The position numbers were made by a program, and so were the translations under genes. A model generated the notes under the pieces. That model was not told the origin of the DNA. It was given only the letters and a program-made list of their open reading frames with translations, and made no database searches. Shown piece by piece: positions 22,491 through 43,328 of a DNA stretch of 64,000 bases. The stretch is from the NCBI GenBank assembly GCA_021776825.1, contig JAJFFG010000051.1:17283-81282 (forward strand), given 5' to 3'. This stretch comes from Planctomycetota bacterium. GTDB lineage: Bacteria; Planctomycetota; JAJSAM01; JAJVHW01. How positions within the stretch are numbered: position 1 is the stretch's first letter; every line of letters begins with the position of its first letter.

Positions 22491-23912
22491 CTAGTTCCTC
22501 TGCAACTCCGCCGGGGTCATCGACACGCCTTCGGGCGGCGTGTCCTTGTTCTTGTCCCACCACTTCTTCGCGGTGCGCGCTCGGCGGCGGCGCTCGGCGA
22601 GGGACTGGTCCTGCGTGACCTCGAAGTCCTGCTGCGTGATGTTGCGCAGGGCGAAATTCGCCTGCTGCGCGACGTACGCCTCCTTGTCCTCGAGCGCCTC
22701 GATCAGGTACGGCGTGGCGAACCACGACTTCAACATCGAGAGCGAGCGGGCACAGGCGCGCCGCACCAGGAAGTGCTTGTCGTTCACAAGAGCCCAGGCG
22801 AGCGCCGGCGTGGCGGCGGGATCGCCAATGCGGCCGAGTTCGTTGGCGGCCGGGAAGCGCACGCCGTCCTCACCGGACTCGAGCAGGTCCTTCGAGAGAC
22901 GCACGACCTCCTCGTTGACCTCGGGAACCACTGGCTGGTCGTCCCGCGGCTGGTCGTCCACTCTTGTTCGCTCGGGAGTCGTGTCGGTCTTCTTGACGAC
23001 GACCTCGGGTCGCGTGACGGTCGCGTTCGCACGCGAGACGACATCGTCGATCCGCTGCTGCAGTCCCTTGAGCTCGCCCTCCATCCGTGCGACGCGCTGG
23101 TCGAGTCGCACGTCGTCCCGAGCCAGGTCGGCGCGCACGCCGGCCAGATCGGTCCGGAGTTTCCCGATCTCGTCGGCGACGTCGCCACCCACGGCCTCGG
23201 CGAACTTCTTGAGTTCACCGGTGATCGCGGCGCGATCGTCGTCGCGCTGCTTCGCGATCTTCGCGATGCGCCCGTCCATCTCGGCGCGGAGTGCGGCGAC
23301 CTCGTCGCTCGGAGTCGGACCGCCCGCCATGCGTTTCTGCACCATCGGACCGATCACGTAGCCGATGCCGCCAGCCAGCGCTGCAACGATGAGGAAGACG
23401 GCCAGCACGCGCAGACCACCGCCGCCCGACTTCGACGACGAGACGGCGCGACAACTCTCACAGACGACGCGGTCGCCCTGGACGAGTGCCTTGCCCGTCA
23501 CGACATGACTGTGCGGCACGACCGCTGAGCAGACGTTGCACCGCGTCGGCTTGACGGGGTCCTCCGCCTCGATGTCGGCAGCCATCTCGGCCTCGACCGC
23601 CTCACGACGCGCGGCCCGCTTGCCGGGATCAGCCTTCGTGCACACGGCGCAGAGGAGCGAGCCGTACTCCTTTCGAGCACGACCCGAGCGCTGGTCCGAC
23701 GCAGGGACCGACACGCGGCAGTTCGCGCAGAAGAGAAGCTCGAGCTCGGTGCCGTCGTCGGTGGCCGGCGCGGTCTCCGCTGGCTTCGCGTCGGCCGCTC
23801 CGTCGCGATGCTCCGAGCAGAGGTTCTTGCCGCCTTCGCCCATGGCGAGGCCAGACTCGACCTCCACGTTGGGGATCGACACGCCACACACACTGCAGAA
23901 ATGGAGTTCCAT
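22491..23912 (-). CDS. membrane protein: three N-terminal CxxC zinc ribbons, one TM helix, coiled-coil region, C-terminal HEAT/PBS-lyase-like repeats
   Basis: Probable start MELHFCSVCGVSIP (ATG rc at 23910-23912), with GGAGAG 7 nt upstream. CxxC pairs: CSVC...CSEH, CANC...CAVC, CNVC...CESC. TM helix LRVLAVFLIVAALAGGIGYVIG. C-terminal segment DPAATPALAWALVNDKHFLVRRACARSL is HEAT-like. Confidence 0.6.
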   Translation of the reverse strand: MELHFCSVCGVSIPNVEVESGLAMGEGGKNLCSEHRDGAADAKPAETAPATDDGTELELLFCANCRVSVPASDQRSGRARKEYGSLLCAVCTKADPGKRAARREAVEAEMAADIEAEDPVKPTRCNVCSAVVPHSHVVTGKALVQGDRVVCESCRAVSSSKSGGGGLRVLAVFLIVAALAGGIGYVIGPMVQKRMAGGPTPSDEVAALRAEMDGRIAKIAKQRDDDRAAITGELKKFAEAVGGDVADEIGKLRTDLAGVRADLARDDVRLDQRVARMEGELKGLQQRIDDVVSRANATVTRPEVVVKKTDTTPERTRVDDQPRDDQPVVPEVNEEVVRLSKDLLESGEDGVRFPAANELGRIGDPAATPALAWALVNDKHFLVRRACARSLSMLKSWFATPYLIEALEDKEAYVAQQANFALRNITQQDFEVTQDQSLAERRRRARTAKKWWDKNKDTPPEGVSMTPAELQRN

Positions 23913-24420
23913 CAAGGTCTCTCCGTGGCCTGCCATTCTAGCCCCCGTTCGCAGCCTGGCGCGTTCGTCGTCGGGAAACCGCGGTGCGAGGCCCCGTGCC
24001 CACGACCGCGAGTCCGATCTCGATCGCCAGAAGGGCCGCAAGGGGCGTGCCCGCCGCGAGCGCTATCGCTCGCGAGCGACCACGAACGCGCCCGGCAGGG
24101 AGCGCGAGGAAGTTCGCCGTGGCGTGAAGGTCGCGCGAACAGGTTGCGCGCGGCCGGGAGTTCGGTCAGATCGAGTCGTGACGAGCCCGGTCTGTCAGAA
24201 GGCGCCACGTCGGCCATCTGAACGGTGACCATCTGAACGGTGAATATCTGAACAGTGACCATCTGCACGGCGGCAGACGGAGCCGCTGCGGGCCGCGGGT
24301 CGGGACACGATGCGCGGAGACACCGTGCGTTGAGACACCGTGCGTTGAGACACGGTGCGTTGAGACACGGTGCGTAGAAGTACCGTGCGTCGAAGTACCG
24401 CGCGCCGCGAGGGCGCGGCG

Positions 24421-25958: not shown

Positions 25959-26099
25959 CCAGCGGCCCGTTTGGGACAGGGTGAGGAACAACGTTTCCAC
26001 TCGATCGTTCTCTCTCGATAACGATCGTTCTCTGGATCCCGACGGCTAGGGGGGGAAGTCCAGTGGTACGGCGTGTGCAAAAGGAACGGTGCGATCCCC

Positions 26100-26537
26100 T
26101 CAAAAAGGCGGCGTCAGGAGAGTCCCAAGCGGGGCCCTGGCGCCGTCGATCGTTTGGGGCCGGCCTACCGGGCTCACACGCACGGTCGCGCGCCCGGTAC
26201 GCCGGCCCCTCGACGGAGTGGTACCCGGGACGACACAGTGAGGAACACGGCGCGACGCGCTACGCACGCAGCACGAAGCGGCGAACTGGGCCGGAGTCGT
26301 CGACGTCGAACGCATCGGGGTCGGCGCAGCACGCGCGGAAGTAGGCCAGCGAGGCGGCGGGTCGAGGGTCGTGGTGTCGCTGAACCCGTCGAAGGTGAGG
26401 CCAGTCGCCGTGACGCGGAACGTGTAGCGGAACACGAGGCCGCGCTCCGGCACGAGCGCTCCCGTCCAGACGAGCTCCTTCAGCGCGTGTCCCTCGGGCC
26501 ACGGGTTCCCCGGGAACCAGATGCGGCCGTTCACGAC
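26100..26537 (-). CDS. hypothetical protein (only the N-terminal roughly 70 aa look protein-like)
   Basis: The frame continues downstream of the LAB_N gene: NGRIWFPGNPWPEGHALKELVWTGALVPERGLVFRYTFRVTATGLTFDGFSD, followed by an R/S/P-rich tail that may be spurious. Confidence 0.2.
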   Translation of the reverse strand, partial: VVNGRIWFPGNPWPEGHALKELVWTGALVPERGLVFRYTFRVTATGLTFDGFSDTTTLDPPPRWPTSARAAPTPMRSTSTTPAQFAASCCVRSASRRVPHCVVPGTTPSRGRRTGRATVRVSPVGRPQTIDGARAPLGTLLTPPF

Positions 26538-27730: not shown

Positions 27731-28957
27731 GTGAGATCCGATCGTCGCTTCATCGCGGGTGTCGTCCTGCTGGCGCTCCTCGTGCGGTCGATCGCGCTCG
27801 GTCGGGACGACCTGTGGGCGGACGAGATCCACACGCTGCAGGCCATCGAGCTCGACTGGCGAGCGATGATCGTCGAGCGGTTCACGCAAGGTCACGTGCC
27901 CGGCTACTTCGCGATCGCGAAGGCGTGGTCCATCGCGGCCGGAACGTCGCAGGCCGCCCTGCGAGGGCCGTCGGTCGCGTTCGGCGCCCTGGCGATTGTG
28001 CCCCTGTTCGCGGTCGCGCGTCGCCTGTCTCCGTCCGCCGGCGCCGCACGGTGGACGGTCGTGCTGCTCGCGGCCCACCCGCTGCTGATCGAGTTGTCCC
28101 GCGAGGCGCGCATGTACCCGCTGCTGCTGCTGGTCGGGGCGGTCTTCGTCGCAGCGACTCTGCGCATCCTCGACGGCGGCGCGGGCTGGGCGTGGCTCTT
28201 CCCAGCAGCGATCGCCGGCCCGCTCATCCACCCCACGTGGGCGTTCATGCTCGTACCGCTCCTTGCCGCCGTGCTCTGGAGTCGCAGCGACGGAGAGCCG
28301 CGCCGCCGCCGTGGCATCGTCCTCGCCTGTCTTCTCAGCGCCGCCGTGACCGTCGCGGTGCTGCTCCCGGTCGACGCCCAGACTGGTCAAGAGCTCCTCC
28401 GGCGCCCGTGGTGGCGAGAGATCGGCGTGTTCGTCGTACGGCTTGTCGCCGGCGCCGGTGTCCGCGAACACTTCCTCCTCTGGTACGCACTGCTCCTGGC
28501 TGCCTCGACCTGGTGCGCGGTGCGCGGGTGGTCGCTGCTCGATGCACGCGCACGCCGTTTCGCCGTCTGCCTCGGACCGGGGGTCGTGGCTGCGGGGGGG
28601 TTCGCGTCCGTGTTCGGGCTGACGCTCGGCCCGATGCGCTACGTGCAGTTCGCGACGATCGGGATGTGCTTGGTCATCGGGGCCGGTGCGTCGACGGGTC
28701 GCGCGCGCTGGCTGCTCGTGCCGGCGCTGGTGCTGGTGCTCGGTCTGCGCTTCGTGCCGGCGCGTACGGCATGGAGCACCGCGCTCGCCGGCGTCGATCC
28801 CGCGCTGCCGCTCGTCTTGGTCGATCCCTCGGCGCGGATGGTGGCCGAGCACTACGCAGGGCGTCCGGTCTCGATCGGAGATCCACCGGCGGGCGCGGCG
28901 GCGTGGATCGAGCTCGCGGCGAACGCGGACGAGGTGCGGGTCATCGAGCGTCCCTGA
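27731..28957 (+). CDS. GT-C fold membrane glycosyltransferase, ArnT/PMT-like (GT39/GT83-type), paralog 1
   Basis: About 11 TM segments. N-terminal periplasmic-loop DE motif LWADEIHT. Divergent from the GT2 gene. Confidence 0.7.
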   Translation: MRSDRRFIAGVVLLALLVRSIALGRDDLWADEIHTLQAIELDWRAMIVERFTQGHVPGYFAIAKAWSIAAGTSQAALRGPSVAFGALAIVPLFAVARRLSPSAGAARWTVVLLAAHPLLIELSREARMYPLLLLVGAVFVAATLRILDGGAGWAWLFPAAIAGPLIHPTWAFMLVPLLAAVLWSRSDGEPRRRRGIVLACLLSAAVTVAVLLPVDAQTGQELLRRPWWREIGVFVVRLVAGAGVREHFLLWYALLLAASTWCAVRGWSLLDARARRFAVCLGPGVVAAGGFASVFGLTLGPMRYVQFATIGMCLVIGAGASTGRARWLLVPALVLVLGLRFVPARTAWSTALAGVDPALPLVLVDPSARMVAEHYAGRPVSIGDPPAGAAAWIELAANADEVRVIERP

Positions 28958-28984
28958 GGAGTTCCGACGCGCGACGCCTCGGCT

Positions 28985-30565: not shown

Positions 30566-30702
30566 TCGGCCCGGTCTCGCGGAACTCTCGTCGCGACGGC
30601 GCGCGCAGGCGACGCGCGCGTTCGCGGGGCGAGCGCGACGACGGCGCAGCGGCAGAGTAGTCTCCGACTCATGAGTTCGGGACGAGCGTAGCGGCAGGCG
30701 GA

Positions 30703-32175: not shown

Positions 32176-33695
32176 ACGAGCTGGCTCCGCTGCTTCGCCT
32201 TGGTCCAACGCTCGTCGCCGCGCTCGCGATCTGGGCGCTCACGACGGCGTGGCTCTCGTGGTGTGGGCGCACCGGGCGCGACCGACTCGCGTTCTGGCCG
32301 CTCGCCGCCGTCGCGAGCGGCGCTGCGCTGTTCTGGGCGGCGCAGGTCGGGGTGGACTGGGACGAGTCCGAGCACCTGCACGCCGCGTGGCGCGTCGCGG
32401 TCGGTGAGCGGCCGTTCGTCGACTTCTGGCAGCACCACTCGCCGACACTCTGGTTCGTGACGTCGCCACTCGCCGGAGCGCTCGGCGAGTCGCCGTGGCT
32501 CATTCCGGTCGCAAGGGCGCTGAGCACGATCGCGACCATCATCGCGGCCTGGATCGCATGGCGTCTCGCCCGGCGACTGCATGGCGACGTCGCGTCGCCG
32601 TCACGGTTCGTGTTCCTGTTCGCTGCGGGCGCGATCACGTGGCAGTTCGCCTGGCTGCGGCCGGACGTGCCCGCCCTGCTCTTGCTCCTCGGTGCCGGTC
32701 ACGCGTGCGTCGACGTCGCCGAGGGTCGCCGCCGCGGCGCGCTGCTCGCGGGAGCGATGCTGGCACTCGCGTGGGGCTTCGCGCCGAAGCAGTTGGCCTT
32801 CGCCGTGCTGCCGCTGGGCGCCATCGTCTTGGGCGGGATCGGTCCGGGCAGGCGAGACCGGCTCCCGCATCGGCTCGGAGCCTTCGGGATCGGCCTCGTC
32901 CTCGGCGCCGCGCCCCTCGTCGGCGTGCTCCTGCAACAGGACCTCGCCCACGCGTTCTGGCAGAACGTGGTCCGCTTCAACGCGCAGCACGTCGGACCCG
33001 GGTTCCCGTTCGGACCAGCGTGGCTGGTGCTCGGGACCGCGGCGGCCGTTGCTGCGTGGCGGCGGTCGGATCGCTCAGCTGCGGGCAGCGTACTCGTCGT
33101 TGCACTGGCTCTCGTCACGCTCGGTTCCGTGGTCGCCGTGCAACACACGGCCCGCTACCACCTGGCGCCGTGGATGGTGCTGGTCGCTGTGCTTGCGTGC
33201 GGTGCAGACGTTCCGGCCGGACTGGGCGGACTGGGCGGCCGCGTCCGACCCGCCGTGATCGGCCTCCTCTGCGCACTGCTTCTCGTGCCCGGTCTCCGGC
33301 AGGCCTGGAACGCGCGCGGCGAACTCTCCCAGGACATCGCGCGGCGCACGGAGTTGCTCGCGGTCTCGCGCGGCGAGAGCGTCCTGTGTGTCCATCCCGA
33401 CCATCCGATCGCTCGGCCGGACGCGACGCGCCTGCACTCGACGTGGCAGCTGCGCTTCACGCGGCGCAATCAGCTGACGCCGCTGGAACCCGACACCGGC
33501 GCGGGGTTCCTGGACCGCATGCGCGCGGCCCGCCCTGCTGTCGTCGTCACCGAGATCGATCAGGTGCCGATCGCCGAAGCCCTTGCCGCGCGCGGCGTTC
33601 TCTCCGAGGCTGAGGCGCTGGAGCTGAAGACGCTCCTCAGCAGTGCCTACGCGCTGCGAGTCGTCGCAGGCCGGACGTTCTACGTTGCGGAGTAG
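32172..33695 (+). CDS. GT-C-like polytopic membrane protein, paralog 4
   Basis: TTG start overlapping the upstream stop (TTGA). DWDESEHLHAAW acidic loop motif. Many TM helices. The upstream part of ORF 32043..33695 overlaps paralog 3 and is rejected. Confidence 0.5.
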   Translation: MNELAPLLRLGPTLVAALAIWALTTAWLSWCGRTGRDRLAFWPLAAVASGAALFWAAQVGVDWDESEHLHAAWRVAVGERPFVDFWQHHSPTLWFVTSPLAGALGESPWLIPVARALSTIATIIAAWIAWRLARRLHGDVASPSRFVFLFAAGAITWQFAWLRPDVPALLLLLGAGHACVDVAEGRRRGALLAGAMLALAWGFAPKQLAFAVLPLGAIVLGGIGPGRRDRLPHRLGAFGIGLVLGAAPLVGVLLQQDLAHAFWQNVVRFNAQHVGPGFPFGPAWLVLGTAAAVAAWRRSDRSAAGSVLVVALALVTLGSVVAVQHTARYHLAPWMVLVAVLACGADVPAGLGGLGGRVRPAVIGLLCALLLVPGLRQAWNARGELSQDIARRTELLAVSRGESVLCVHPDHPIARPDATRLHSTWQLRFTRRNQLTPLEPDTGAGFLDRMRAARPAVVVTEIDQVPIAEALAARGVLSEAEALELKTLLSSAYALRVVAGRTFYVAE

Positions 33696-33782
33696 CCGGG
33701 CTCGGTCACGGCGCGCGCGAAGGATCTCGGCGCTCCGATGACAGAATCCACCGCACTGGCACGGCCGCCACCCGTTGGTGAG

Positions 33783-35996
33783 ATGGAGACCCCCATGCGC
33801 CCCTCGACCGCCTCGATCGCCGCCGCTCTCCTCCTTGCCGTCGCCGCCTGCGGGACGCCACGCGCCGAGGAGGCGCCGAGCGCGACGAACCCGGACGCCC
33901 CCGTGACGGTCGCGGAGCCGGTCGCCGAACCGATCAAGATCGTGTTCGAGCCTCCGTTCACCGGGCCGTACGTCGACATCGACACGCCGGTCGTCACCAC
34001 GGCGCCGCAGCCGCATCCCGTGCGGCGATTGACGACCTCCGACCGTGTTCTCGTGACCGCGACCGATTGGGGCTTGCACGACGATCGCGAGACCGAGGGC
34101 ACACGTCCGTTCCGCCTGCTGGTGGTCGATGCCGTGACCGAGGCGGTGGTACCGGACGCCGAGATCCGCTTCTTCCGGGTCTCCGACCGCGGTCCGGACT
34201 GGCGCCAGCAGCTCCCCGCGCGGCTGTACGCGGACGAGACCGGCACGGTGAACGTCGACGTCGCGCTCGATGCGCGTGTCGCCATGGTCGCCCGCGCTCC
34301 GGAGTGCCTGCCGGTGACGGCGATCCTCGATCCACTGGCCGGCGTGCGCACGCGAGAGGGTCTGCTCGGTCGCGGCCTGGTCGTCGGGCCGTCGGGTGAG
34401 TCGGCGACGCTCTTCGTCGGCGGCGGCGGGCGCCTCCACGGAGTGGTCACGGACGAGGACGGCCTGCCGCTCGCCGACGCCGTGGTGAGGATCTCGCCGC
34501 CGGACGAGACGCAGCGACAGCCCTGGCGACACGGCTACCTCGTCGACGCCGATGCGAAGCGCTTCCTGTCCCCCATGTGCACAACGGACGCGGAGGGCGC
34601 GTACGACCTCCGCGGGGTCGCGGTCCCGGGCCGCTACGTCGTCCTCGCCGGGCGGGCCCACGATGCGACGGGGCGCTCCGCTGAGACGCTCTTCCTTCCG
34701 GAAACCGACGAGGCCTGCGCGGACGTCCGACTCGAGCCGAGGTCCATGCTGATCGTGCGCGTCATGGACGCCGACGAGACACCGCAGCCGGAGGCGTGGA
34801 TCGAGCTGCAGGCCACGTGGGGCCCGAAGACTCCGGACGTCAGCGACGGTGCCGCTACCGGAGAGTGGCGCTACGGACCGCTGCTCGCAGGCGAGTACCG
34901 CATGTCGGTCAACGCGCCGGACCTGGTCGGAGAACGCCGTGTCGTCACCGTCGACGGGCTCCGAGAGAGCACGCAGACATTCCTGCTGAACCGCGGCGGC
35001 GCGCTGACTGGTCGCCTCACGAACCCCTCCGGCACGCCGATCTCGGGCGTCGAGGTCCGCTTCACGAACCGCAGCTCGCGGCACTCCGCCAAGTCCGACG
35101 ACGACGGCCGCTTCTCGATCCCGGGCGTCTCCGCGGACCCCGGCACCGTGCAGATCTTCACCCCGCCGGGACATCGATCGTACCTCCGACGCAAGGTCGT
35201 CCCCACCGGCGACCCGCTCGAGATCACGTTGGAGCCGCTCTCGTCGATCCGCGGACGCGTGCTCCCCGTGCCGGCCTGCGGCACGGTCACGTACTCCGGT
35301 CCGGGCGGCTCCCGCACGGGCTGGAAGACGCGCGAGATCGCGGTCGACGACGACGGCACGTTCCTTATCGATGGCATCGACGGGGTGCGCGCGTTCGACA
35401 TGCTGCTCTGGCCCGGCGGCGGCGCGTGTCACATCCTGCGTGGCACGAAGCTTACCTCCGGCAAGACACTCGACATCGGCACGATCGACGGCTCCCCCGA
35501 GGCGCGCCTCACGGGTCACGTTGTCGACGAGAACGGAGAGCCGCTCCCCGGCGCGACGGTGTTCCTCGAGCAGTTCCCGGTGGCGCAGCGCGTCCGCACG
35601 CGGACCGACGCGGACGGCTCGTTCACGCTGCCGCTGAACGCGCGAGGCGACGGGCTGCTCGTCGTCAAGGCCGACGGCCTGCCCACGACCCACGTGCCCC
35701 TCGCCGTCGATCCCGATCGTCGACGTGTGTCGCTGCAGGTCCTTCCGGGCGGCACCGTCGCCGGCACGCTCCCCACGACGGGCAGCGGGCGGCAGTCCTC
35801 GTACATCGAGTTCCGGCGCAAGGCGGGCCCCGGGCGCTGGGTCGCGAACGCGACCGCCGGGCTGGGTCTCTACGAGGTCCGGCTCCCCGCGGGCACGTAC
35901 ACCACGCGTGGACGCATCAACGGCAAGTGGGTCGCCGGCGACGAGGTCGAGGTCCGGAGCGGCGGAAAGCACGTCGTCTCGATTAAGGCGCGCTGA
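33783..35996 (+). CDS. lipoprotein with repeated carboxypeptidase-regulatory-like (CarbopepD_reg/Big-like) beta-sandwich domains
   Basis: Start METPMRPSTASIAAALLLAVAACG (lipobox). Repeated G(R/V)V-x-DE-x-G-x-P-L-x-GA-x-V motifs (GVVTDEDGLPLADAVV, GRLTNPSGTPISGVEV, GHVVDENGEPLPGATV). Confidence 0.65.
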   Translation: METPMRPSTASIAAALLLAVAACGTPRAEEAPSATNPDAPVTVAEPVAEPIKIVFEPPFTGPYVDIDTPVVTTAPQPHPVRRLTTSDRVLVTATDWGLHDDRETEGTRPFRLLVVDAVTEAVVPDAEIRFFRVSDRGPDWRQQLPARLYADETGTVNVDVALDARVAMVARAPECLPVTAILDPLAGVRTREGLLGRGLVVGPSGESATLFVGGGGRLHGVVTDEDGLPLADAVVRISPPDETQRQPWRHGYLVDADAKRFLSPMCTTDAEGAYDLRGVAVPGRYVVLAGRAHDATGRSAETLFLPETDEACADVRLEPRSMLIVRVMDADETPQPEAWIELQATWGPKTPDVSDGAATGEWRYGPLLAGEYRMSVNAPDLVGERRVVTVDGLRESTQTFLLNRGGALTGRLTNPSGTPISGVEVRFTNRSSRHSAKSDDDGRFSIPGVSADPGTVQIFTPPGHRSYLRRKVVPTGDPLEITLEPLSSIRGRVLPVPACGTVTYSGPGGSRTGWKTREIAVDDDGTFLIDGIDGVRAFDMLLWPGGGACHILRGTKLTSGKTLDIGTIDGSPEARLTGHVVDENGEPLPGATVFLEQFPVAQRVRTRTDADGSFTLPLNARGDGLLVVKADGLPTTHVPLAVDPDRRRVSLQVLPGGTVAGTLPTTGSGRQSSYIEFRRKAGPGRWVANATAGLGLYEVRLPAGTYTTRGRINGKWVAGDEVEVRSGGKHVVSIKAR

Positions 35997-36043
35997 CCCG
36001 AATCGCAGACGCCGGGGACCGACCGGCCTCGTAGGCTCCGTCC

Positions 36044-37513
36044 ATGCGACGACGGCTCATCGGCTTGGCGGTTGCGCTCGGAGGCCTCGCGGTCGTCGGC
36101 GATGCGCTCGCCGTGGATGCCGAGACCCGCAAGCTGGCGCGCTCGGACGACTGGTCGGAGCGAACCGACGCCGCGATACTGCTCGCGACAGAGGGCACGC
36201 CGGAGGCCGTGAAGTTGCTGCGCAAGCTCCTCACCGACGACCAGCCCTACGTCCGTGATTGGTCCGTCTACTACTGCGACCGGCTGAAGAACGAGGCGGG
36301 GATCGCCGCGCTCGAGCCGCTGACGCGGTCGCGTCACGAGTGGGCGCGGCTCAACTGCGCATCCGCGCTCGGCCGCACGGAGTCGCCGTTCGCGGCGCCA
36401 CTGCTGACGCAGATCACGCTCAACGACCGATCCGCCGGAGTGCGGGCGGCCGCGATGACGGGCCTGGTCCAGCTGAAGAAGCAGGTCGATGTCGACAGCG
36501 TGCTGATGGAGGCATTCCAGAACACCGACGCCGACGTTCGCGCGGCCGCGGTCGTGGCCCAGGACAAGCTGCGCGGGGCGAGCGCGAAGGTCATGGCACT
36601 CGCCGCGTGCGACGACCCAGACGAGGGCGTGCGATGTGTCGGAACGTGGCTGCTGCGGCGTGTCGACCGATCGGCGCTGCTCGCACGTCTCGGCCAGACG
36701 CACAAAGGCGACCGATGGCGCAGTCGAGTTCAGCTCGCAGAGAACGCGACCTTCCTCCGCGCGCGGGAGTCGATCGACGTGCTCGTCGCGCTCCTCGACG
36801 ATGCGAACCCGCGTGTGGCGTCACAGGCGCATCGCGGGCTGCGCCGTCTGAGCGGCACGCGTCTGGGCCGCGACCGGGATCTGTGGGACAGCTGGTGGAA
36901 GGCGAACCGCGCCGGGTGGACGGTGACCAAGGAGATGCCACCCGCCCCGTCGGTCGAGGCCGGCGACACGTTCGCGCGCTACCACGGAATGGAGGTCGAT
37001 TCCGCCGGCGTGCTGTTCGTGCTGGACGCCTCCGCGAGCATGTACGGGCGGCTGGACGAGGACGCCACCGAAGGTCCTTCCAGGTGGGAACTCGCGACGA
37101 CCGAGCTGTTCGCCACGCTCGATCAGCTCCCAGACGGACTGCCCGTCAACGTCGCGCGCTTCCACGAGGATGCCAAAGCAGCCTTTCCGACGCCGCGAGC
37201 TCTCAGCAAGTCCACCCGAAAGGCGCTGCGGGCCTTCATCGAGGGCACCGAGCTCGAGGCGGCGACCAACCTCTACTCGGCACTCCGCCTGACGCTCCGC
37301 ATGAAGGGCATCGACACGGTCTTCATCCTGTCGGACGGCGACTCCACGCACGGCGAGATCGTCCGCGACGACCGCATCGCACCGATCTTCTGGCGCGCGA
37401 ACCGGAGCCGAAAGCTCGCCGTGCACACGATCGCGTTCGGCGCGGACCAGTCCGGGAGCGAACTGCTGACGCGACTTGCAACGAACAACGGCGGCCGCTT
37501 GGTGAAGAAGTAG
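36044..37513 (+). CDS. secreted HEAT-repeat protein with C-terminal von Willebrand factor A (vWA) domain
   Basis: Signal peptide. HEAT/PBS-lyase-like repeats (DWSERTDAAILL, DRSAGVRAAAMTGL, DADVRAAAVVAQ, DPDEGVRCVGTWLL, NPRVASQAHRGL). The vWA MIDAS-containing segment VLFVLDASASM...TNLYSAL...VFILSDGD. Confidence 0.7.
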   Translation: MRRRLIGLAVALGGLAVVGDALAVDAETRKLARSDDWSERTDAAILLATEGTPEAVKLLRKLLTDDQPYVRDWSVYYCDRLKNEAGIAALEPLTRSRHEWARLNCASALGRTESPFAAPLLTQITLNDRSAGVRAAAMTGLVQLKKQVDVDSVLMEAFQNTDADVRAAAVVAQDKLRGASAKVMALAACDDPDEGVRCVGTWLLRRVDRSALLARLGQTHKGDRWRSRVQLAENATFLRARESIDVLVALLDDANPRVASQAHRGLRRLSGTRLGRDRDLWDSWWKANRAGWTVTKEMPPAPSVEAGDTFARYHGMEVDSAGVLFVLDASASMYGRLDEDATEGPSRWELATTELFATLDQLPDGLPVNVARFHEDAKAAFPTPRALSKSTRKALRAFIEGTELEAATNLYSALRLTLRMKGIDTVFILSDGDSTHGEIVRDDRIAPIFWRANRSRKLAVHTIAFGADQSGSELLTRLATNNGGRLVKK

Positions 37514-37531: not shown

Positions 37532-40500
37532 CTACCGGTCGAAGAGGCCGTGCTTCTCCATCTTCTTCCGCAGCCACACGCGGGAGATGCCGAGGTCCTT
37601 CGCAGCGCGGGTCTGGTTCCCGCCGGTGTGATCGAGGGCCTTCTCGATCAGCGCGCGCTCCATCTTCTCGAGGTTCTCCTTGAGCGTGCGGCCGGCCTCG
37701 GGGCGCACGAGTTCGGGCTCGGGGCCAGCACGCTCGCCCTGGATGGCGAACGAGAGGTCCTCGAGCGTGACGCGGTCGTCGGAGAGCGTCAGCGCCTTCT
37801 TCACCTCGTTGTCGAGCTCGCGGACGTTCCCGGGCCAGGCGTAGCCGGCCATGGCGTCGAGGGCGTCCGCGTCGAACGCCTTGCGCGTCAGGCCGAGCTC
37901 GATCGCGGCGCGATCGGCCATGTGCTCGATCAGCAGCCGGATGTCGCCGTCGCGGTCGCGAAGCGGCGGCATCGCGATGCTGATGACGGCGATGCGGTAG
38001 TACAGGTCCTCGCGGAACGTGCTCTCGCCCATCATCTTGCGCAGGTCGCGATTGGTGGCCGAGATGACGCGTACATCGACCTTCTTCACGTCCTTGCCAC
38101 CGACGGCGCGCACCTCGCGCTCCTGGAGCACGCGCAGGAGCTTCTTCTGCATGTCGAAGCTCATCTCCCCGATCTCATCGAGGAAGATGGTGCCGCCGTC
38201 GGCCGCACTGAAGAGACCCTGCTTGTCCTCGTGCGCGCCGGTGAACGAGCCGCGCACGTGGCCGAAGAGTTCGCTCTCCATCAGCGACTCGGTGATCGCG
38301 CCGCAGTTGACGGTCACGAACGGTCCCGCCTTGCGGCGCCCGTACTGGTGCAGCGCGCGCGCGATCAGCTCCTTGCCCGTGCCCGACTCGCCGTGCACGA
38401 GCACCGGGACCTCGGTGTCGACGACCTTGTCGACGAGTAGGAGCACGCGGTGCATCTGCGGGGACTCGCCGATGAGCTCCGTATACGGGTACTTCGTGGC
38501 GCGCTCCGCGAGGGCCCGCGACGCCTGCTCGAGCTCCGCACTCTTCTGCTCGAGGTTGTGCTCGAGCTGACGGTTGAGCTGCTGCATGCTCTCGGCCTGC
38601 CGCAGGTTGCGGATGGCGAGCGCGGCCTGGTCACCGAGCGCCGTCAGGAACTGCAGGTCGCCGGTCCCGAACTGACCGTTGCGGGCCGGGTTGTCGAGGT
38701 AGAGAGCGCCGATCGTCTCCTCGCCCAGACGGAACGGCACCGAGATGATCGACTTCAGTTCGAGGCGCTCGACGCTCTCGAACTCGCTGAAGCGCTGATC
38801 TTCGGTCGCGTTGTCGGTGAGGATCGGCTGGCCGCTCTTCATCACGCGCGTAACGAGCGTGCGGCTGACCTTCAGCTCCGGCTTCGGGACCTCCTCGCGG
38901 CGGAAGTTGCGCGCCGTCTGGAAGGAGATCTTCTTCGCGTCGTCGACCAGGATCAGGAATCCGCGCTCCGCGCCCGTCGCCTCGGTGGCGACGTCCATGA
39001 TGGTGTCGAGCAAGCCGCGCACGTCGGTGGCCAACGCGAGCTTCTTGTTGATCTCGAGCAGTTTGAACAGGCGTTCCTGGTCCATTTCGTCCTCTCGAGC
39101 GGCCTCCGGCGTCGCGTCCGACCCTGAACCAACAAGCAGCGCCATCTCATCCGCGAGCCGGTCCAAGCGCTCCTTCTTCGCCCCCGCGGCACGCGTCCCT
39201 CGTAGCGCCGGCGGCAGCGAGGCCTGGAGGTCGTCTTCACACTGGATCGCCTCCGCCAGCGCGGTGCTCGCGCCGTCGCGATCACCGGCGGAGAAGCGAC
39301 CCCGCGCCAGAGCGTACGCGGCGGTGGCGCGGTAGTCACGACGCCCTGCCGCGTGGACGTATCGATGGAAGCGTTGGAGGGCTGCGAGAGCCTCGTCCGA
39401 GGCCTCGCGATCGGCATCCAGACGCCCCCGGACGAGGTCCACCCGAGCGCGCAGATCGGCCGGCCCGTGTTCCGCGGCGATGTCCTTGGCAGCCCGCCAC
39501 GACTTGATCGCCGTGCCGCGGCGATTGCGGGCGTGATCCGCCAGCGCCGTCTCGAGCATCACTTCGGCGAGGCCCGCCCGATCGCCGGCCTCTTCGTGCA
39601 ATCGAGCCGCGGCCTGGAGATGTGCCTGCGCTGCGTCGCTGTGAGGATCCAGGCGGCTCTCGAGACGACCGAGCAGCATCTCCGCTACCGCCTGGTGGCT
39701 GCGCAGTGAGGCCGAGGCGGCCCGCGACAGCGCCCGTATCAGAAGCGGCCGAACGCCCACGAGGTCGTCGGCAAGCAGGTGGATGTCGGCCATCTGGATC
39801 AGGAACTGCACCTCTCCGCGGGCGTCGCCGAGCGCGCGCAGGCGGCGCGTCGCGGTGTGGAGCAGTGTCAGGGCGGTCCCAAGGCGGCCACGAGCGCGAT
39901 ACAGTCCGGCGAGGTTGCCCGTCGTCACGGCGATCCCGGCCAGGTCACCGATACGACGGCGCAGAGCGAGACTCCGTCGCTGCAGTTGCTCGGCTTCCGT
40001 GAAGTCGCCGTGCTCGGCGCGCAGGTTCGCCAGATTGCCGAGCGTCTGGGCGACGCCCTGCAGGTCCTTGGCGCGGCGTGCCAGTCGCAGCGACTGGCGA
40101 TAGCTCGCAGCAGCGTCAGCCGCGCGCCCCTGCTGGGCGGAGACCACACCCAGATTGTGCAGCGCGGTCGCCATGCCACGCCGCCGCCCGAGCGCACGAC
40201 ACGCGGCCAGACAGCTCTCGTGGAACTGCCGCGCGCGTCCGAGTTCGCCGAGCTGGAGGTACACGTTGCCGAGCAGGGTCAGGAGCGTCGCGCGCTCGGC
40301 GCCACGCCCCTCTCCCGCCAGCGGCAGTGCTCCACGGACCGTCTCGATCGCGCCGCGCAGATCGCCCAGGCCGCGCTGGGCGCTCGCCATTCGCGCGAGC
40401 AGTTGGAGGCGTAGGTCGCCCCTCTCGGCCGGATCGAGCGAGGTCCCCGGCTCTTCGATCAGGTCGAGTGCGCCGCGGCAAGCCGGCTCGACATCGGTCG

Positions 40501-42916
40501 CCTGCCCCGCCGAATCGAGGGCTTCGACGAGACCGAGGAGCAGGCGCACGCGTGCCCCGGTGTCGGTCTCGGCATCGAGGAGGTCGCGATAGACGTTCGC
40601 CGCAGCAGCCGGACGCCCCGAGCTGACGAGGAGCTCCGCCAGCGAGCGACGCACGTGCGGCACGCGCGGGTCCGACTCGTCGAGGGTCCGCAACGCCTGC
40701 CGGACGCAGTCGGCCGCACGTCCCGGCTCGCCGTCGCCACGCAGCCGACGCGCAGCGGAGGTGGCTGCCTGGAAGCCCTTGTCCGGGTCGGTTCCGCGCG
40801 CGACGTGATACGCCCGTCGGATCTCCGTCGCCGCCCCATGCCCGACGATGCCCCGCGCGAGCAGGTCATGGAGTTTCGCCCGCCCGCGCGGCGACAGCAT
40901 CTTCAGCGCCGCCTGGCCGATGACGGAGTGCACGACGGTGACACCGCTCCCGTCGCCGGTCGGCGTGATGAGGCCCTCGGCTTCCAGCTCCGCGAGCAAC
41001 GCCGCGGTCTCTGCGCCGAGGTACATCCCCGCGCGAGTCCGTGCGAGCGGCAGCTCGTGCCCGGCGACGATCTGGAGTGCCGCGCGCTCCCGCTTCGGCA
41101 GCGCTTCGAGACGCACACTCACGGCATCGGTGAGGCTCGCCGGCAGTCGCGGCGCCGCCTTCGTGTCGACGATCCAACGGATGCCGTCGTGACGCAGTCC
41201 GCGTCCCTGCACGAGCTGACCGAGGAGCTGCTCGGCGAACAGCGGGAGCGCACCACCGTGGGCATGGACGACCTCAGCCACCCACTCGGCGGGCGCCCGG
41301 GGACCGAGGATGCCGGCGACCATCTCGGCGACGCCCGCGGGCCCCAGCGTCCGCACGGGCATCGAGAGCACCAGTTCCTCGGTCGTCATCGCGGCGAGCG
41401 TCTCGACGATCTCCTCCGCGACCGGGACGCCCTCGGTGAACGACGCCACGGTCATCAGGAATGGCGCCTGGCCGGCGGCGTGGCTCTCGGTGATGGTGCG
41501 GGCGATGGCTCCGAGGACCCGGAGCGTCATCGCCGTGGCGTTCTGCAGGTCCTCGACGACGAGCAGGATGCCGCCGCACTCGACTGCCCGTTCCAGGAGG
41601 AAGCGTGCGGCCGTCTCGGCGCCGCTCTGGTCACCCTTGGCCGCCAGGAGGCTCGCCACAGCGCGTCCGCGCCGCTCGATCGCCGGCGAGTCCGCGGGCG
41701 CCGAGCGCAGGACTGCATCGATCAGCGTGCCGAGAGCGGGCAGCGGTCGATCGCGTTCCTCGGAGCACGAGGCCGACACCGTCGACCACCCCGCCGCGAT
41801 CGCGCGCAGACGCATCTCGAACAGCAGGCTCGACTTGCCGACGCCGGACTCACCCTGGACCAGCACGAGACCGGCGAGATCTGGAGTCGGGCCCTCGGTG
41901 GCTGCGGTCGCGGCACCGGAACGCGCCTCGACCAGGTGACGCTCCAGACGCGCCAGCTCCGCCTCGCGCCCCGCGGGTTCGGGAGCGTGCGGCAAGGGGC
42001 GTGGGGATCGCCGGAAGCCGTCGGGACCGAGGGCGGCCTCGAGTTCTTGGAGCGCCACCTCCGCCGACTCGAAGCGTCGCTCGGGGCGTGGGTGGAGAAG
42101 CACGCGCAGCCAGTCTCGCGGTAGCGGGATGTCGCCGTCGGGCACGTCGTCGGGACCGAGCGTCGCCACGGGCGGGAACTGACGCCCGAGGACGAGCTGC
42201 AGCAGGACCGCGCCCGCCGCCCACAGATCGGAGCGAGCGTCGGCGGGCTCCCCAGCGAGCACCTCCGGAGCCACGTACGGCAGCGTGCCGCGCGGCGGAA
42301 CGTCACAGCCTTCGCGGACGGCGAAGCCGTAGTCGAGGAGGACCACGCGTCGACCGCGGGCGACGACGACGTTCGCCGGCTTCACGTCCTGATGGAGCCA
42401 GCCATGGCGGTGCAGGTGACCCAGCACGTCGAGCAGGCCTCGCGCGACGTGTGCCGGGTCCTCGTCCTCGGTCGGCGTCTCCGACTCGACGTAGTGCATG
42501 AGGATCCACGGCCCGCTCTCGGGCTCGCGTCCGATCTCGACAAGCCGCGGCACGCCGCGATGCACGATCGAGGCCAGGACCCGGGCCTCGTGGAGCAGGC
42601 GCTCTCCGGCCTCCGCGGACGGCAGCGGACCGTCCTCGCCGAGAGTGCCGACCGTCTTCAGCGCACGGAGCACGCCGCCCCGTCTCAGATCCCGCACCAG
42701 AACGACCTGCCCGCCGCCGCCAGAACCGAGCGGGCGGACGACCTCGAATCGCCCACGCAGGCCGTCGGGAGGAGACCCCGCGGGCTGATCGGTCTCGGTG
42801 GTCGGCGGGGCCTGAGGGCTCTGAGATTCCACGCGTGCGTTCGCAGCGGCACCGTAGGTTGAGCGCTTCATCCTACGACGCGAACCGCATCTCGGGCGCG
42901 CCCCCTGGAGACGCAC
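37532..42916 (-). CDS. multidomain regulator: Ser/Thr protein kinase - AAA/NTPase (STAND-like) - TPR repeats - GAF - sigma-54 interaction (EBP) domain - Fis-type HTH
   Basis: Single open frame of 1794 aa. Kinase motifs GSGGGGQV, LHQDVKPANVVV, DYGFA. P-loop GESGVGKSSL. Multiple TPR-like repeats. GAF segment IMDVATEATGAERGFLILVDD. Sigma-54 EBP Walker A GESGTGKELIARALH with the GAFTGA-type GSFTGA loop, ESELFGH and Walker B IFLDEIGE. C-terminal HTH NQTRAAKDLGISRVWLRKKM. The true start may be the ATG at 42869-42871 (MKRSTYG). Confidence 0.85.
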   Translation of the reverse strand: MRLQGARPRCGSRRRMKRSTYGAAANARVESQSPQAPPTTETDQPAGSPPDGLRGRFEVVRPLGSGGGGQVVLVRDLRRGGVLRALKTVGTLGEDGPLPSAEAGERLLHEARVLASIVHRGVPRLVEIGREPESGPWILMHYVESETPTEDEDPAHVARGLLDVLGHLHRHGWLHQDVKPANVVVARGRRVVLLDYGFAVREGCDVPPRGTLPYVAPEVLAGEPADARSDLWAAGAVLLQLVLGRQFPPVATLGPDDVPDGDIPLPRDWLRVLLHPRPERRFESAEVALQELEAALGPDGFRRSPRPLPHAPEPAGREAELARLERHLVEARSGAATAATEGPTPDLAGLVLVQGESGVGKSSLLFEMRLRAIAAGWSTVSASCSEERDRPLPALGTLIDAVLRSAPADSPAIERRGRAVASLLAAKGDQSGAETAARFLLERAVECGGILLVVEDLQNATAMTLRVLGAIARTITESHAAGQAPFLMTVASFTEGVPVAEEIVETLAAMTTEELVLSMPVRTLGPAGVAEMVAGILGPRAPAEWVAEVVHAHGGALPLFAEQLLGQLVQGRGLRHDGIRWIVDTKAAPRLPASLTDAVSVRLEALPKRERAALQIVAGHELPLARTRAGMYLGAETAALLAELEAEGLITPTGDGSGVTVVHSVIGQAALKMLSPRGRAKLHDLLARGIVGHGAATEIRRAYHVARGTDPDKGFQAATSAARRLRGDGEPGRAADCVRQALRTLDESDPRVPHVRRSLAELLVSSGRPAAAANVYRDLLDAETDTGARVRLLLGLVEALDSAGQATDVEPACRGALDLIEEPGTSLDPAERGDLRLQLLARMASAQRGLGDLRGAIETVRGALPLAGEGRGAERATLLTLLGNVYLQLGELGRARQFHESCLAACRALGRRRGMATALHNLGVVSAQQGRAADAAASYRQSLRLARRAKDLQGVAQTLGNLANLRAEHGDFTEAEQLQRRSLALRRRIGDLAGIAVTTGNLAGLYRARGRLGTALTLLHTATRRLRALGDARGEVQFLIQMADIHLLADDLVGVRPLLIRALSRAASASLRSHQAVAEMLLGRLESRLDPHSDAAQAHLQAAARLHEEAGDRAGLAEVMLETALADHARNRRGTAIKSWRAAKDIAAEHGPADLRARVDLVRGRLDADREASDEALAALQRFHRYVHAAGRRDYRATAAYALARGRFSAGDRDGASTALAEAIQCEDDLQASLPPALRGTRAAGAKKERLDRLADEMALLVGSGSDATPEAAREDEMDQERLFKLLEINKKLALATDVRGLLDTIMDVATEATGAERGFLILVDDAKKISFQTARNFRREEVPKPELKVSRTLVTRVMKSGQPILTDNATEDQRFSEFESVERLELKSIISVPFRLGEETIGALYLDNPARNGQFGTGDLQFLTALGDQAALAIRNLRQAESMQQLNRQLEHNLEQKSAELEQASRALAERATKYPYTELIGESPQMHRVLLLVDKVVDTEVPVLVHGESGTGKELIARALHQYGRRKAGPFVTVNCGAITESLMESELFGHVRGSFTGAHEDKQGLFSAADGGTIFLDEIGEMSFDMQKKLLRVLQEREVRAVGGKDVKKVDVRVISATNRDLRKMMGESTFREDLYYRIAVISIAMPPLRDRDGDIRLLIEHMADRAAIELGLTRKAFDADALDAMAGYAWPGNVRELDNEVKKALTLSDDRVTLEDLSFAIQGERAGPEPELVRPEAGRTLKENLEKMERALIEKALDHTGGNQTRAAKDLGISRVWLRKKMEKHGLFDR

Positions 42917-42917
42917 G

Positions 42918-43328
42918 ATGCCCTTGGCGAAAGAACCCGCTCACCCGCTCGACAAGCGCGAGCTCCTCCACGCCGATCCTCCGGACGCGAAGCGCATCGA
43001 TGCGGTGGCGTCGAAGCTCCTCGACGAGGGCCGTGAGGGCGAGTCCGTGGAGTACATCGAGGTGACGCGCAACGCGGAGCTCATCGCGCGCCTCACCACC
43101 GCCGCGAAGAAGAAGGGCTCGCCCTTCCTGCTCGAGCAGTCGCAGCGCCTGTCCGGCGAGATCCAAGACGAGACGGCCTGGCGCGACATTGCCGACGCTG
43201 CGCAGCGAGCGGAGCGTCATGTCGACGTCGTGCGCGCGTACTCGGCCGCCGGGCTCGAGGCAGAGGCCGAGGAGTACCGGGTGGTGAACTGCCCGGACTA
43301 CGACCCGTTCAAGCCCCATAACAAGTAG
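42918..43328 (+). CDS. hypothetical protein
   Basis: ATG with GGAG 7 nt upstream. Divergent from the megaregulator gene. 136 aa with no recognisable domain. The stop TAG at 43326-43328 abuts the composite repeat. Confidence 0.5.
   Translation: MPLAKEPAHPLDKRELLHADPPDAKRIDAVASKLLDEGREGESVEYIEVTRNAELIARLTTAAKKKGSPFLLEQSQRLSGEIQDETAWRDIADAAQRAERHVDVVRAYSAAGLEAEAEEYRVVNCPDYDPFKPHNK

Follow-up and report, generated by a model that had tools for sequence, protein, structure and literature searches.

Sigma-54 transcription depends obligatorily on enhancer-binding proteins (EBPs) as its switches, and what a cell can sense is set by the regulatory parts of these proteins. We know of no characterised EBP that is controlled by an NLR-like ATP switch together with Ser/Thr phosphorylation. 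The giant regulator encoded in the 64-kb stretch of DNA analysed here (the window) resembles several described systems in part. With EBPs of the NifA, NorR and FhlA type it shares a GAF domain, Walker A and B motifs, a GAFTGA-type loop, sensor II, and a Fis-type HTH, and its C-terminal ca. 500 amino acids align end to end with NifA; unlike NifA, it carries ca. 1290 extra N-terminal residues (kinase, STAND and TPR regions) and has no nif context. PknK of M. tuberculosis, cited as a MalT-related STAND kinase (PMC4381067, PMC1262709), is built alike, with a Hanks kinase at the N-terminus, then an AAA_16 P-loop domain and a MalT-like TPR sensor. PknK stops after the sensor, as an orthologue would, whereas the giant protein goes on to GAF, AAA+, and HTH domains; MalT ends in a LuxR HTH where the giant protein ends in a GAF domain and a complete sigma-54 activator. 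A further difference is that its kinase is non-RD. The identical domain order is found in a database family of 1500-1800 aa named 'sigma 54-interacting transcriptional regulator'. EBPs are also known paired with small RNAs, as in LuxO/Qrr and GlrR/GlmY. For an EBP gene adjoining its sigma-54-dependent sRNA, the precedent is pxr, located downstream of nla19 (PxrR) (PMC5568312). The present locus is similar to nla19/pxr in that an EBP gene lies near a short candidate RNA gene with a -24/-12 promoter and a candidate upstream enhancer; it differs in that this RNA has no similarity to Pxr and is convergent with the EBP gene, not downstream on the same strand. Unlike the EBPs of nla19/pxr, LuxO/Qrr and GlrR/GlmY, this one is not a response regulator.

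The maximal open reading frame of the regulator (37532..42916, minus strand) begins with GTG and encodes 1794 aa, without an internal stop. Codon bias is even throughout the frame (GC3 0.86, GC2 0.49) and similar in the neighbouring genes, and collinear full-length orthologues of 1753-1792 aa, 57-68% identical end to end, occur in 9 independent assemblies. The regulator is one single uninterrupted gene, as the first-pass annotation had proposed. The same annotation placed its start at ATG 42871, as does the NCBI-style gene call (P0001). However, two orthologues (P0003 and P0005) begin at a homologous (G/T)TG-GAA-TC ('MES...') with stop codons immediately upstream, and ATG 42871 itself falls within a TAnnAT element that is conserved and non-coding; the gene probably starts at GTG 42832, at neither 42916 nor ATG 42871, and its probable extent is 37532..42832 (minus strand, 1766 aa). 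With this start, the shared promoter region of ca. 47 bp that was first suggested becomes an intergenic spacer of about 85 bp.

All motifs quoted in the first reading are present in the translation (HRHGWLHQDVKPANVV, DYGFA, GESGVGKSS, GESGTGKELIARALH, ESELFGH, GSFTGA, and DEIGE), and Pfam recovers each of the domains named there in the same order: kinase, P-loop NTPase, TPR, GAF, EBP, and HTH. Numbered on the 1794-aa frame, the matches are Pkinase (57-246, E 6e-22; 78.7 bits against a cut-off of 31.7), AAA_16 (315-475, E 5e-14; 53.6 bits against 32.6), TPR_MalT (851-1139, E 1.5e-12) with TPR_12 (E 1e-20), GAF_2 (1296-1435, E 1.5e-19), Sigma54_activat (PF00158; 1481-1647, E 2.9e-72, model positions 1-167 of 168), AAA_lid_14 (1653-1731), and HTH_8 (1749-1788, E 1.4e-13), of which the last three constitute a complete EBP module. 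The STAND-type NTPase (AAA_16; 40817..41974, minus strand) has a Walker A motif, GESGVGKSS, and a Walker B motif, LLVVEDLQ, with G340-S347 and D441 invariant across the 9 orthologues. After the P-loop domain come predicted helical and winged-helix-like domains, and then a TPR/MalT-domain-III-like superhelical sensor region (39122..40816, minus strand). The earlier count of about 10 TPR-like repeats was too low: the structure model has ca. 29 stacked helices (about 14 helical hairpins) over residues ~676-1262, and the fold matches the sensor of MalT domain III. A P-loop NTPase with Walker A and B motifs joined to such a sensor is typical of the MalT clade of STAND proteins. The GAF domain (38606..39031, minus strand), a putative small-molecule sensor, is recognised by Pfam and by alignment to NifA; the GAF, AAA+ and HTH region as a whole aligns to residues 93-504 of the solved NifA structure 9qq6_C.

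The sigma-54 activator AAA+ domain with its lid (37724..38476, minus strand) carries Walker A GESGTGKE, Walker B FLDEIGE, and sensor II GNVRELDN, and is followed by a Fis-type HTH_8 DNA-binding domain (37553..37672, minus strand). Walker A and B are those of an EBP, and the motifs are conserved in the orthologues and across the best 120 database homologues. The sigma-54 contact loop reads GSFTGA (38234-38251, minus strand). Its Ser-for-Ala exchange had been singled out as unusual, but GSFTGA is a listed natural, activation-competent variant of the GAFTGA loop, known from Desulfovibrio vulgaris EBPs with mapped targets (PMC4641369) and also from EBPs of Cereibacter sphaeroides (PMC11999139); it occurs in 8 of the best 120 homologues, and the nine orthologues are divided between GSFTGA (5) and GAFTGA (4). 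The protein is not NifA, since its score against the NifA equivalog model TIGR01817 (382.5 bits, E 3.5e-114) is below the cut-off of 528.85 bits. It is encoded by the sole EBP gene in the window, and a single EBP gene is likewise found in each of the four 25-kb orthologous loci that were scanned. No rpoN gene is located within the window.

The fusion of a kinase to an EBP, first regarded as exceptional, is a widespread database architecture: PF00069 and PF00158 occur together in ca. 117 of the best 120 homologues, which span the Myxococcota, Planctomycetota, and Acidobacteriota (named sources are Polyangiaceae, Sorangium, Sandaracinaceae, Planctomycetes, and Thermoanaerobaculia). Judged from these 120, the family comprises more than 100 database clusters in at least three phyla. 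Several members are labelled 'PknK' by JGI, a label based on similarity. The kinase-AAA_16-TPR chassis is found without the EBP as 'PknK' in Archangium and Pyxidicoccus, and elsewhere with adenylate cyclase or Trans_reg_C/BTAD outputs, which shows that outputs are swapped as modules. Within this family, the window protein is one of at least nine orthologues, and the divergent 136-aa gene and the RNA described below are confined to this group; more distant paralogues lie in other contexts, for example beside pilMNOPQ. Contig searches gave no match with the single protein, and with an alignment they were dominated by generic EBPs through the motif WPGNVREL. In the literature searched we found no paper describing the kinase-EBP fusion and no experiments on any family member. 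Kinases with sigma-54 activator domains attached are reportedly listed in the papers on the myxobacterial kinome and on the So ce56 genome. The best explanation of the gene, which we hold with rather better than even confidence, is that its product is a cytoplasmic protein that integrates signals within one polypeptide, a genuine sigma-54 EBP governed by a PknK/MalT-like module and a GAF domain and belonging to a large uncharacterised family.

Both neighbours of the gene are as first described. The convergent one (36044..37513, plus strand) is a HEAT/VWA open reading frame with a signal-peptide-like N-terminus, in keeping with a secreted protein. The divergent one (42918..43328, plus strand) encodes a 136-aa protein without a Pfam match that has an all-helical, TPR-like solenoid fold and an invariant C-terminal tail, CPDY(D/E)PFKP(L/H)(G/N)K. 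It adjoins the EBP gene in 9 of 9 orthologous loci, and the protein could be a partner, ligand, or substrate of the giant regulator. The divergent intergenic region (42833..42917) holds two elements conserved at the DNA level: the TAnnAT-like GTA(C/G)GAT, which overlaps ATG 42871, and A(A/C)(A/C)CTACG-N19-(G/T)TGGAATC. No sigma-54 site is present between the two genes; the (G/T)TGGAATC element was considered as such a promoter and ruled out by its GG-N9-GC spacing.

The search for sigma-54 promoters that the first-pass annotation had recommended was uninformative as a count, with 16 matches to TGGCAC-N5-TTGCW across the window against 14.4 expected, and only conservation across loci singled out two promoters. 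The sigma-54-type promoter P1 (GGGCACGCCCCTTGCG; 24037..24052, minus strand) is situated 125 nt upstream of a HEAT_2 repeat protein gene (22491..23912, minus strand; 473 aa, MELHFCSVCG...), which is syntenic with a 474-488-aa HEAT_2 gene of the orthologous loci. The P1 element recurs at the syntenic place in loci L001, L083, and L084, and as GGGCATGCGGCTTGCG in L002; it was not found in L090. Between P1 and P2 are a syntenic HU-like gene (24627-~25000, minus strand) and an equally syntenic Kdo/WaaP-like kinase gene (25062-25958, plus strand). P2 (TGGTACGGCGTGTGCA; 26064..26079, plus strand), also of the sigma-54 type, follows ca. 105 nt past the stop codon of the latter, and its -24 GG and -12 GC are invariant across the loci. 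Upstream lies a candidate enhancer (26002..26029, plus strand) composed of CGATCGTT (26002-26009) and, at 26020-26029, the perfect palindrome AACGATCGTT. This palindrome occurs once in the 64-kb window and upstream of P2 in every orthologous locus that includes the region. It is a candidate binding site for the HTH of the giant EBP; it could also bind a different factor.

Behind P2 we find a candidate sigma-54-dependent small RNA of about 70 nt (26090..26156, plus strand; 3' end not defined). Its 5' end, GCGAUCCCCUCAARAAGG, is conserved and single-stranded, and a GC-rich hairpin of 17 bp comes next; covariation was assessed on 7 sequences. P2, the palindrome, and the RNA occupy the syntenic position in the window and in L001, L002, L083, L084, and L090. 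A reading of the RNA as a 5'-leader was rejected because no conserved open reading frame follows it. The region 25900-26500 gave no Rfam match, Pxr included, at E <= 1; a strict terminator scan of the window detected no canonical U-rich terminator after the RNA; and a search within the loci for mRNAs complementary to its 5' end returned only noise. A pattern scan of metagenomes added just two genuine copies, of which one is truncated, besides a chance match. The RNA is a candidate for a conserved structured RNA not described before, and for a direct target of the giant EBP.

From synteny we infer a link between the EBP and these promoters, with P2 and AACGATCGTT as the most likely local target and P1 possibly another, which makes the 473-aa HEAT_2 repeat gene a candidate target as well. 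The block of EBP gene, RNA, Kdo, HU, and HEAT genes is retained in every locus that is long enough, down to 57-63% protein identity, and in L001, L002, and L091 the RNA is only ca. 0.1-0.6 kb from the EBP stop codon (123 nt beyond it in L091), across a gap without a same-strand gene call (in L002 a 78-aa ORF is called on the opposite strand, 15400-15636). These arrangements, and the lack of a second EBP within 25-64 kb, weigh against the most serious alternative, which we consider possible but rather unlikely: a functional EBP with its targets elsewhere in the genome, where P1, P2, and the RNA obey another activator and the synteny is merely inherited gene order. In its favour, the RNA and the EBP gene are separated in the window by 11.4 kb filled with glycosyltransferase and other genes, insertions in the block are also seen in L084, P1 shares no recognisable enhancer with P2, and EBP-rich relatives with large genomes have many EBPs (Minicystis rosea has 104 sigma-54 regulators, PMC8436480).

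A second question is whether the Hanks-type Ser/Thr kinase domain (42017..42748, minus strand; residues ~57-300) phosphorylates at all. Its closest solved relative is PknB, and it has a G-loop GSGGGGQV, the beta3 Lys in RALK, the alphaC Glu in HEAR, the catalytic loop HQDVKPAN, DYG, VAPE (the APE motif), and DLWAAG with the subdomain XI Arg. The Hanks-type catalytic residue set is therefore complete; the kinase is non-RD, because HQD has no Arg before the catalytic Asp. Catalytic loops in the orthologues begin HL, HT, HN, HH, or HQ, and HRD is found in just one. Among the best 120 homologues many have HGD, HLD, or HMD, and one subgroup (HGDFTPAN with DLSCA) lacks the catalytic-loop Lys or the DFG Gly; since some paralogues have such degenerate motifs, the design of the family does not depend on kinase activity. 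One might then suppose, from the missing HRD Arg, the DYG in place of DFG, and the relatives just named, that the domain is chiefly a scaffold or pseudokinase and the protein a STAND/GAF-regulated EBP without phosphotransfer. We think this improbable for the orthologue group, where K72, E95, D162, K164, N167, D180, and G182 are invariant across all 9 members, as are the G-loop glycines and the APE region. Kinases of the non-RD type are catalytically active elsewhere. A coupling of phosphosignalling and transcription activation within one protein is plausible.

Far less probable is an anti-phage or conflict STAND system (Avs/NLR-like) with the kinase or the EBP as effector: a STAND NTPase, a repeat sensor, and a non-RD kinase would suit it, and PADLOC returns PD-T4-6 and mad6 for the kinase and RtcR_PspF for the EBP part, but these matches are generic to kinase, TPR, and EBP domains and leave the STAND/TPR core uncovered, the sensor is MalT-like, and the gene sits in conserved chromosomal synteny among housekeeping-type neighbours, not in a variable island. 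That the long frame arose artificially, when a frameshift or the assembly ran a PknK-like kinase gene into a NifA-like EBP gene, is scarcely credible: each half is known elsewhere as a separate protein, but the frame runs on unbroken with an even codon bias, the same domain order recurs in more than 100 database proteins, and the collinear orthologues of 9 independent assemblies discount it.

For the one-polypeptide signal integrator, a mechanism may be drawn by analogy with MalT as a STAND protein (PMC4381067) and with the GAF-containing EBPs NifA and NorR. At rest, the STAND module would be closed and monomeric, and GAF and linker would keep the AAA+ domain inactive. Binding of a ligand or partner by the TPR sensor would, with ATP, open the STAND module and lead to multimerisation, which would raise the local AAA+ concentration until an active ring forms at the enhancer and remodels the sigma-54 holoenzyme through the GSFTGA loop. 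A small molecule could provide a second input via the GAF domain. Kinases gathered in the oligomer might lock or tune activity by autophosphorylation, or act on separate substrates, which would give the protein a second output. The most likely local output would be the novel ca. 70-nt small RNA, transcribed from P2 with the AACGATCGTT enhancer, and possibly the HEAT-repeat gene from P1; the conserved 136-aa TPR-like product may serve as partner, ligand, or substrate. Only tentatively do we go further and envisage a self-contained, undescribed unit, in which the STAND-gated kinase-EBP would bind AACGATCGTT and induce the ca. 70-nt RNA, and the 136-aa partner would control the TPR sensor, for example via its invariant CPDY(D/E)PFKPLGK tail. 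The exposed CCCCUC 5' end of the RNA could then mask ribosome-binding sites.

The regulatory region of this giant EBP amounts to a whole PknK/MalT-type STAND kinase. If the integrator reading is true, a second ATP switch, NLR-like and coupled to Ser/Thr phosphorylation, would drive assembly of the AAA+ activator ring; and if the self-contained unit exists, a single pathway would combine NLR-like oligomerisation and Ser/Thr phosphorylation with transcription activation and riboregulation. The comparison of loci yields a testable system with candidates for an enhancer, two promoters, a small-RNA target, and a protein partner. As the family is large yet unstudied, one characterised member would annotate many genes.

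The minus-strand ORF at 37532..42916, here called kinase-EBP (EBP: enhancer-binding protein, a sigma-54 activator), reads from a GTG start through 1794 aa without interruption in the translated window, and its codon-position GC (GC3 0.86, GC2 0.49) is like that of the neighbouring genes in a window of ~70% GC. A Pfam domain search recovered every domain named in the first-pass annotation, in the same order: Pkinase (residues 57-246 of the 1794-aa frame), AAA_16 (315-475), TPR_MalT (851-1139) plus TPR_12, GAF/GAF_2 (1296-1435), Sigma54_activat (1481-1647; E 2.9e-72, full-length model match), AAA_lid_14 (1653-1731), and HTH_8 (1749-1788). In a comparison with solved structures the C-terminus aligned with ZraR, FleQ, NtrC1 and PspF, and the combined GAF, AAA+ and HTH portion with NifA 9qq6; the N-terminus resembles PknB, and the repeats the LGN/Pins TPRs. 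A frameshift or assembly fusion as the source of the long ORF is excluded for practical purposes, because eight proteins from independent assemblies align collinearly with the window protein at 57-68% identity over 97-98% of its length; one contiguous gene, as had been proposed, is thus confirmed. Across these nine orthologues (the window protein and its eight full-length relatives) the kinase retains its G-loop GSGGGGQV, beta3 Lys (RALK), alphaC Glu (HEAR), the Asp, Lys and Asn of the catalytic loop HQDVKPAN, DYG, the P+1/APE segment GTLPYVAPE, DLWAAG, and an Arg in subdomain XI, all of them invariant. At the HRD motif the Arg gives way to Q in the window protein and to L, T, N or H in orthologues (R in one), which by motif places the kinase in the non-RD class. 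Both STAND motifs, Walker A GESGVGKSS and Walker B LLVVEDLQ, are kept among the orthologues; residues 290-1290, modelled with AlphaFold2 on 32 aligned sequences (mean pLDDT 87.8), form an alpha/beta NTPase, helical domains and ~14 helical hairpins in the model. All EBP motifs are present: Walker A GESGTGKE, ESELFGH, GSFTGA, Walker B FLDEIGE, and sensor II GNVRELDN. In kinase-EBP one polypeptide thus unites an intact kinase and an intact STAND P-loop with a MalT-type sensor, a GAF domain and a full EBP module.

A database search retrieved 205 homologues at E <= 1e-20. Among the best 120 of these, Pkinase (PF00069) and Sigma54_activat (PF00158) occur together in ~117, so the fusion, earlier presented as exceptional, is not unique; nearly all add GAF and HTH_8, most AAA_16/TPR, with lengths of 1400-2000 aa. 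Their named sources include Polyangium, Sorangium, Sandaracinaceae, Polyangiaceae, Planctomycetes and Thermoanaerobaculia. HGD, HLD or HMD prevail at the HRD position in this set (P0001-P0120), and a subgroup with degenerate kinase motifs (HGDFTPAN in 15, DLSCA/DLGCA) probably represents pseudokinase versions of the same architecture. The S-for-A exchange in the GAFTGA loop, earlier held to be notable, proved ordinary: GAFTGA occurs in 100 and GSFTGA in 8 of the best 120 homologues, the nine orthologues divide into five with S and four with A, and GSFTGA is listed among activation-compatible variants, being carried by two D. vulgaris EBPs with assigned target operons, DVU2394 and DVU3220 (PMC4641369), as well as by C. 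sphaeroides EBPs (PMC11999139).

Homologue labels are generic only ('sigma 54-interacting transcriptional regulator', 'PknK', 'Nif-specific regulatory protein'). Since the PADLOC matches are all generic, an identity as a defence STAND was rejected. With NCBIfam the C-terminal ~500 aa come closest to NifA, but at 382 bits against an equivalog cut-off of 529, so kinase-EBP is not NifA; nor is it a PknK orthologue, given its extra output domains. The kinase and STAND half, used as a query, found the same chassis without an EBP in the ~1200-aa 'PknK' of Archangium and Pyxidicoccus, and also fused to adenylate cyclase (PF00211) or Trans_reg_C/BTAD. To judge from these domain combinations, the EBP is therefore one of several interchangeable outputs on a PknK/MalT-like sensor-kinase scaffold, and by analogy the protein would work like a GAF-EBP bolted to that scaffold. 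Fusions of kinases to sigma-54 activators are reportedly mentioned in the 2007-2008 Sorangium genome and kinome papers. Our literature search found no paper describing the fusion in the searchable library, and it is absent from a 2005 survey of kinase architectures in prokaryotes (PMC1262709). Kinase-EBP is one member of a large, catalogued, uncharacterised architecture family.

Alignment of the upstream region (window 42833-42917) with those of four orthologous loci (L001, L002, L083, L084) revealed three blocks conserved at the DNA level: GTA(C/G)GAT, TAnnAT-like and in the window of the form gtcGTAGGATGaag; A(A/C)(A/C)CTACG; and, exactly 19 nt downstream of the second, (G/T)TGGAATC(T/C)C. 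In L002 and L083 the annotated start (MES...) is the (G/T)TG of the third block; stop codons occur immediately before it, and it is preceded by no canonical start. The L001 copy of this block is not in the reading frame of the gene. On these grounds the blocks are non-coding or start-site elements. The ATG at 42871, previously preferred as the start, falls inside the first block, and the window gene most probably begins at GTG 42832 (MESQSPQ..., 1766 aa), so that 85 bp separate it from the divergent ATG at 42918. The earlier interpretation thus stands for the architecture, but not for the loop, the start codon or uniqueness. The first block resembles a -10 hexamer and also a half-site (ACGATC) of the palindrome discussed below; the gene may be autoregulated.

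The divergent 136-aa ORF (42918-43328, +; GC3 0.87) is a genuine gene. Its 13 database homologues all measure 135-139 aa and, with one exception, are unnamed or 'hypothetical'; the exception, P0132, bears the automatic JGI label 'anti-sigma factor ChrR (cupin superfamily)', which the all-helical model does not support. That model confidently shows a TPR-like eight-helix fold; the C-terminal tail, CPDY(D/E)PFKPLGK, is invariant and disordered, and may serve as a ligand for a TPR groove or as a Tyr/kinase site. A divergent copy adjoins every orthologue examined (window, L001, L002, L083, L084, L090, L091, L092, and the JGI contig of P0006) and is absent beside the distant paralogues P0011 and P0030, whose loci we examined. 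It is a conserved gene and a candidate partner of kinase-EBP. The loci share two-component/ABC-binding genes, an unknown gene of ~820-930 aa and a TPR protein on the divergent-gene side, and a Kdo/WaaP-like kinase, HU, HEAT_2 and an ABC exporter beyond the kinase-EBP 3' end. Compared with orthologous loci, the window holds an insert of ~11 kb (26833-37513) between kinase-EBP and the Kdo-HU-HEAT block, encoding a GT2 glycosyltransferase (-), three paralogous PMT_2 (dolichyl-phosphate-mannose-type) glycosyltransferases (+), a CarboxypepD_reg/Big_1 protein (+), and a HEAT/VWA protein with signal peptide (+). Elsewhere in the window, 11756-13591 (+) joins a long Lys/Ala/Pro-rich repetitive N-terminus (HC2 histone-H1-like and extensin-like matches; repeated CCTTCTTGG units on the opposite DNA strand) to a SAM methyltransferase domain; 16814-18160 (+) encodes an ARPP-1 domain protein (ARG and rhodanese-phosphatase-superfamily-associated; E 3e-48); and 56024-56731 (-) a dual-specificity phosphatase (DSPc), possibly a counterpart to the region's Ser/Thr/Tyr kinases.

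TGGCAC-N5-TTGCW-like sites occur window-wide at chance level (16 against 14.4 expected). Requiring GG/GC and comparing loci left two sites at syntenic positions, and sigma-54-type promoters are thus kept near the kinase-EBP gene. P1 (GGGCACG-N4-CTTGCG; 24037-24052, -) lies between HU and the HEAT_2 gene (22491-23912, -), 125 nt upstream of its ATG at 23912; it has the same place in the window, L001, L083 and L084, takes the form GGGCATGCGGCTTGCG in L002, and was not seen in L090. The adjacent HEAT-repeat protein begins MELHFCSVCG (zinc-ribbon-like). Besides P1, a conserved sigma-70-like -10 element, GGGGG(C/T)TAGAATGG, sits nearer the start codon, which suggests dual promoters for this gene. 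P2 (TGG(C/T)ACG-N4-(C/T)(C/G)GC; 26064-26079, +) follows the stop of the Kdo gene by ~100 nt, a position it keeps in the window, L001, L002, L083, L084 and L090, directed at the 3' end of kinase-EBP; its invariant columns are exactly TGG.ACG......GC. Some 35-40 nt upstream of its -24 element stands the perfect palindrome AACGATCGTT, found once in the 64-kb window and once each in L001, L002, L084 and L088, in L083 as one exact copy plus a one-mismatch copy elsewhere in the locus, and in L090 twice, one copy being at the P2-upstream place. A second CGATCGTT lies ~2 helical turns farther upstream.

About 11 nt after the P2 -12 GC, at the expected sigma-54 transcript start, begins a conserved block of ~70 nt (candidate RNA, 26090-26156, +), 90% identical among loci with flanks that do not align; downstream of it we found no protein-level or DNA-level conservation across loci. 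Palindrome, promoter and RNA form a unit (26002-26156, +) that recurs in L001 (15703-15840), L002 (15808-15955), L083 (16478-16613), L084 (20423-20559), L090 (15348-15476) and L091 (13462-13530), all on the minus strand, and in L088 (1818-1953, +). The RNA is predicted to fold into a single-stranded 5' end, GCGAUCCCCUCAARAAGG, and a 17-bp hairpin (window MFE -46.6 kcal/mol, z = -2.7). With a covariance model trained on six copies, each orthologous locus gave a single hit and the surroundings of distant paralogues gave none; the model also picked up diverged copies, at 60.7 bits in L091, 123 nt past the EBP stop codon, and at 33.7 bits in L090, where CAUUUUC follows. In an alignment of seven sequences, pairing holds in 99% of cells, with compensatory double changes at three pairs, a level matched by only 2/500 shuffles (slid registers give ~50% pairing), which is supportive and not conclusive since the alignment was model-fitted. 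A terminator scan found no canonical U-tract in the window copy, so the 3' end is undefined. We consider the RNA a candidate new sigma-54-dependent sRNA; with no Rfam match at E <= 1, it and its candidate enhancer, the palindrome, appear undescribed. Read-through from P2 into the plus-strand genes of the insert (all but GT2) is conceivable. In L084, 15457-20281 (-) downstream of the RNA encodes a 210-aa Frankia_peptide-like protein (PF14407, weak), a TP_methylase and a 1111-aa protein, perhaps a RiPP-like cassette that was inserted at the equivalent site.

Across the window, L001, L002, L083 and L084, EBP signature motifs occur in no protein other than kinase-EBP; P2, the RNA and P1 are the candidate targets of this activator. 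LuxO/Qrr1 and GlrR/GlmY are known neighbour pairs of EBP and sRNA. In Myxococcus, too, an EBP gene stands beside its own sigma-54-dependent sRNA gene, pxr adjoining nla19 (PMC5568312). By analogy with MalT, a precedent for STAND multimerisation (PMC4381067), a sensor-bound ligand or partner together with ATP would open the NOD and allow multimerisation. This would nucleate an EBP ring at the enhancer, and the clustered non-RD kinase domains might trans-autophosphorylate or phosphorylate substrates, as PknK does. The GAF domain would be a second input, as it supplies input in NifA and NorR. By itself the kinase-EBP gene is nothing unusual in high-GC bacteria rich in EBPs and kinases; the conserved set of EBP, candidate partner, enhancer and sRNA opens an unstudied class of sigma-54 activators to concrete tests.
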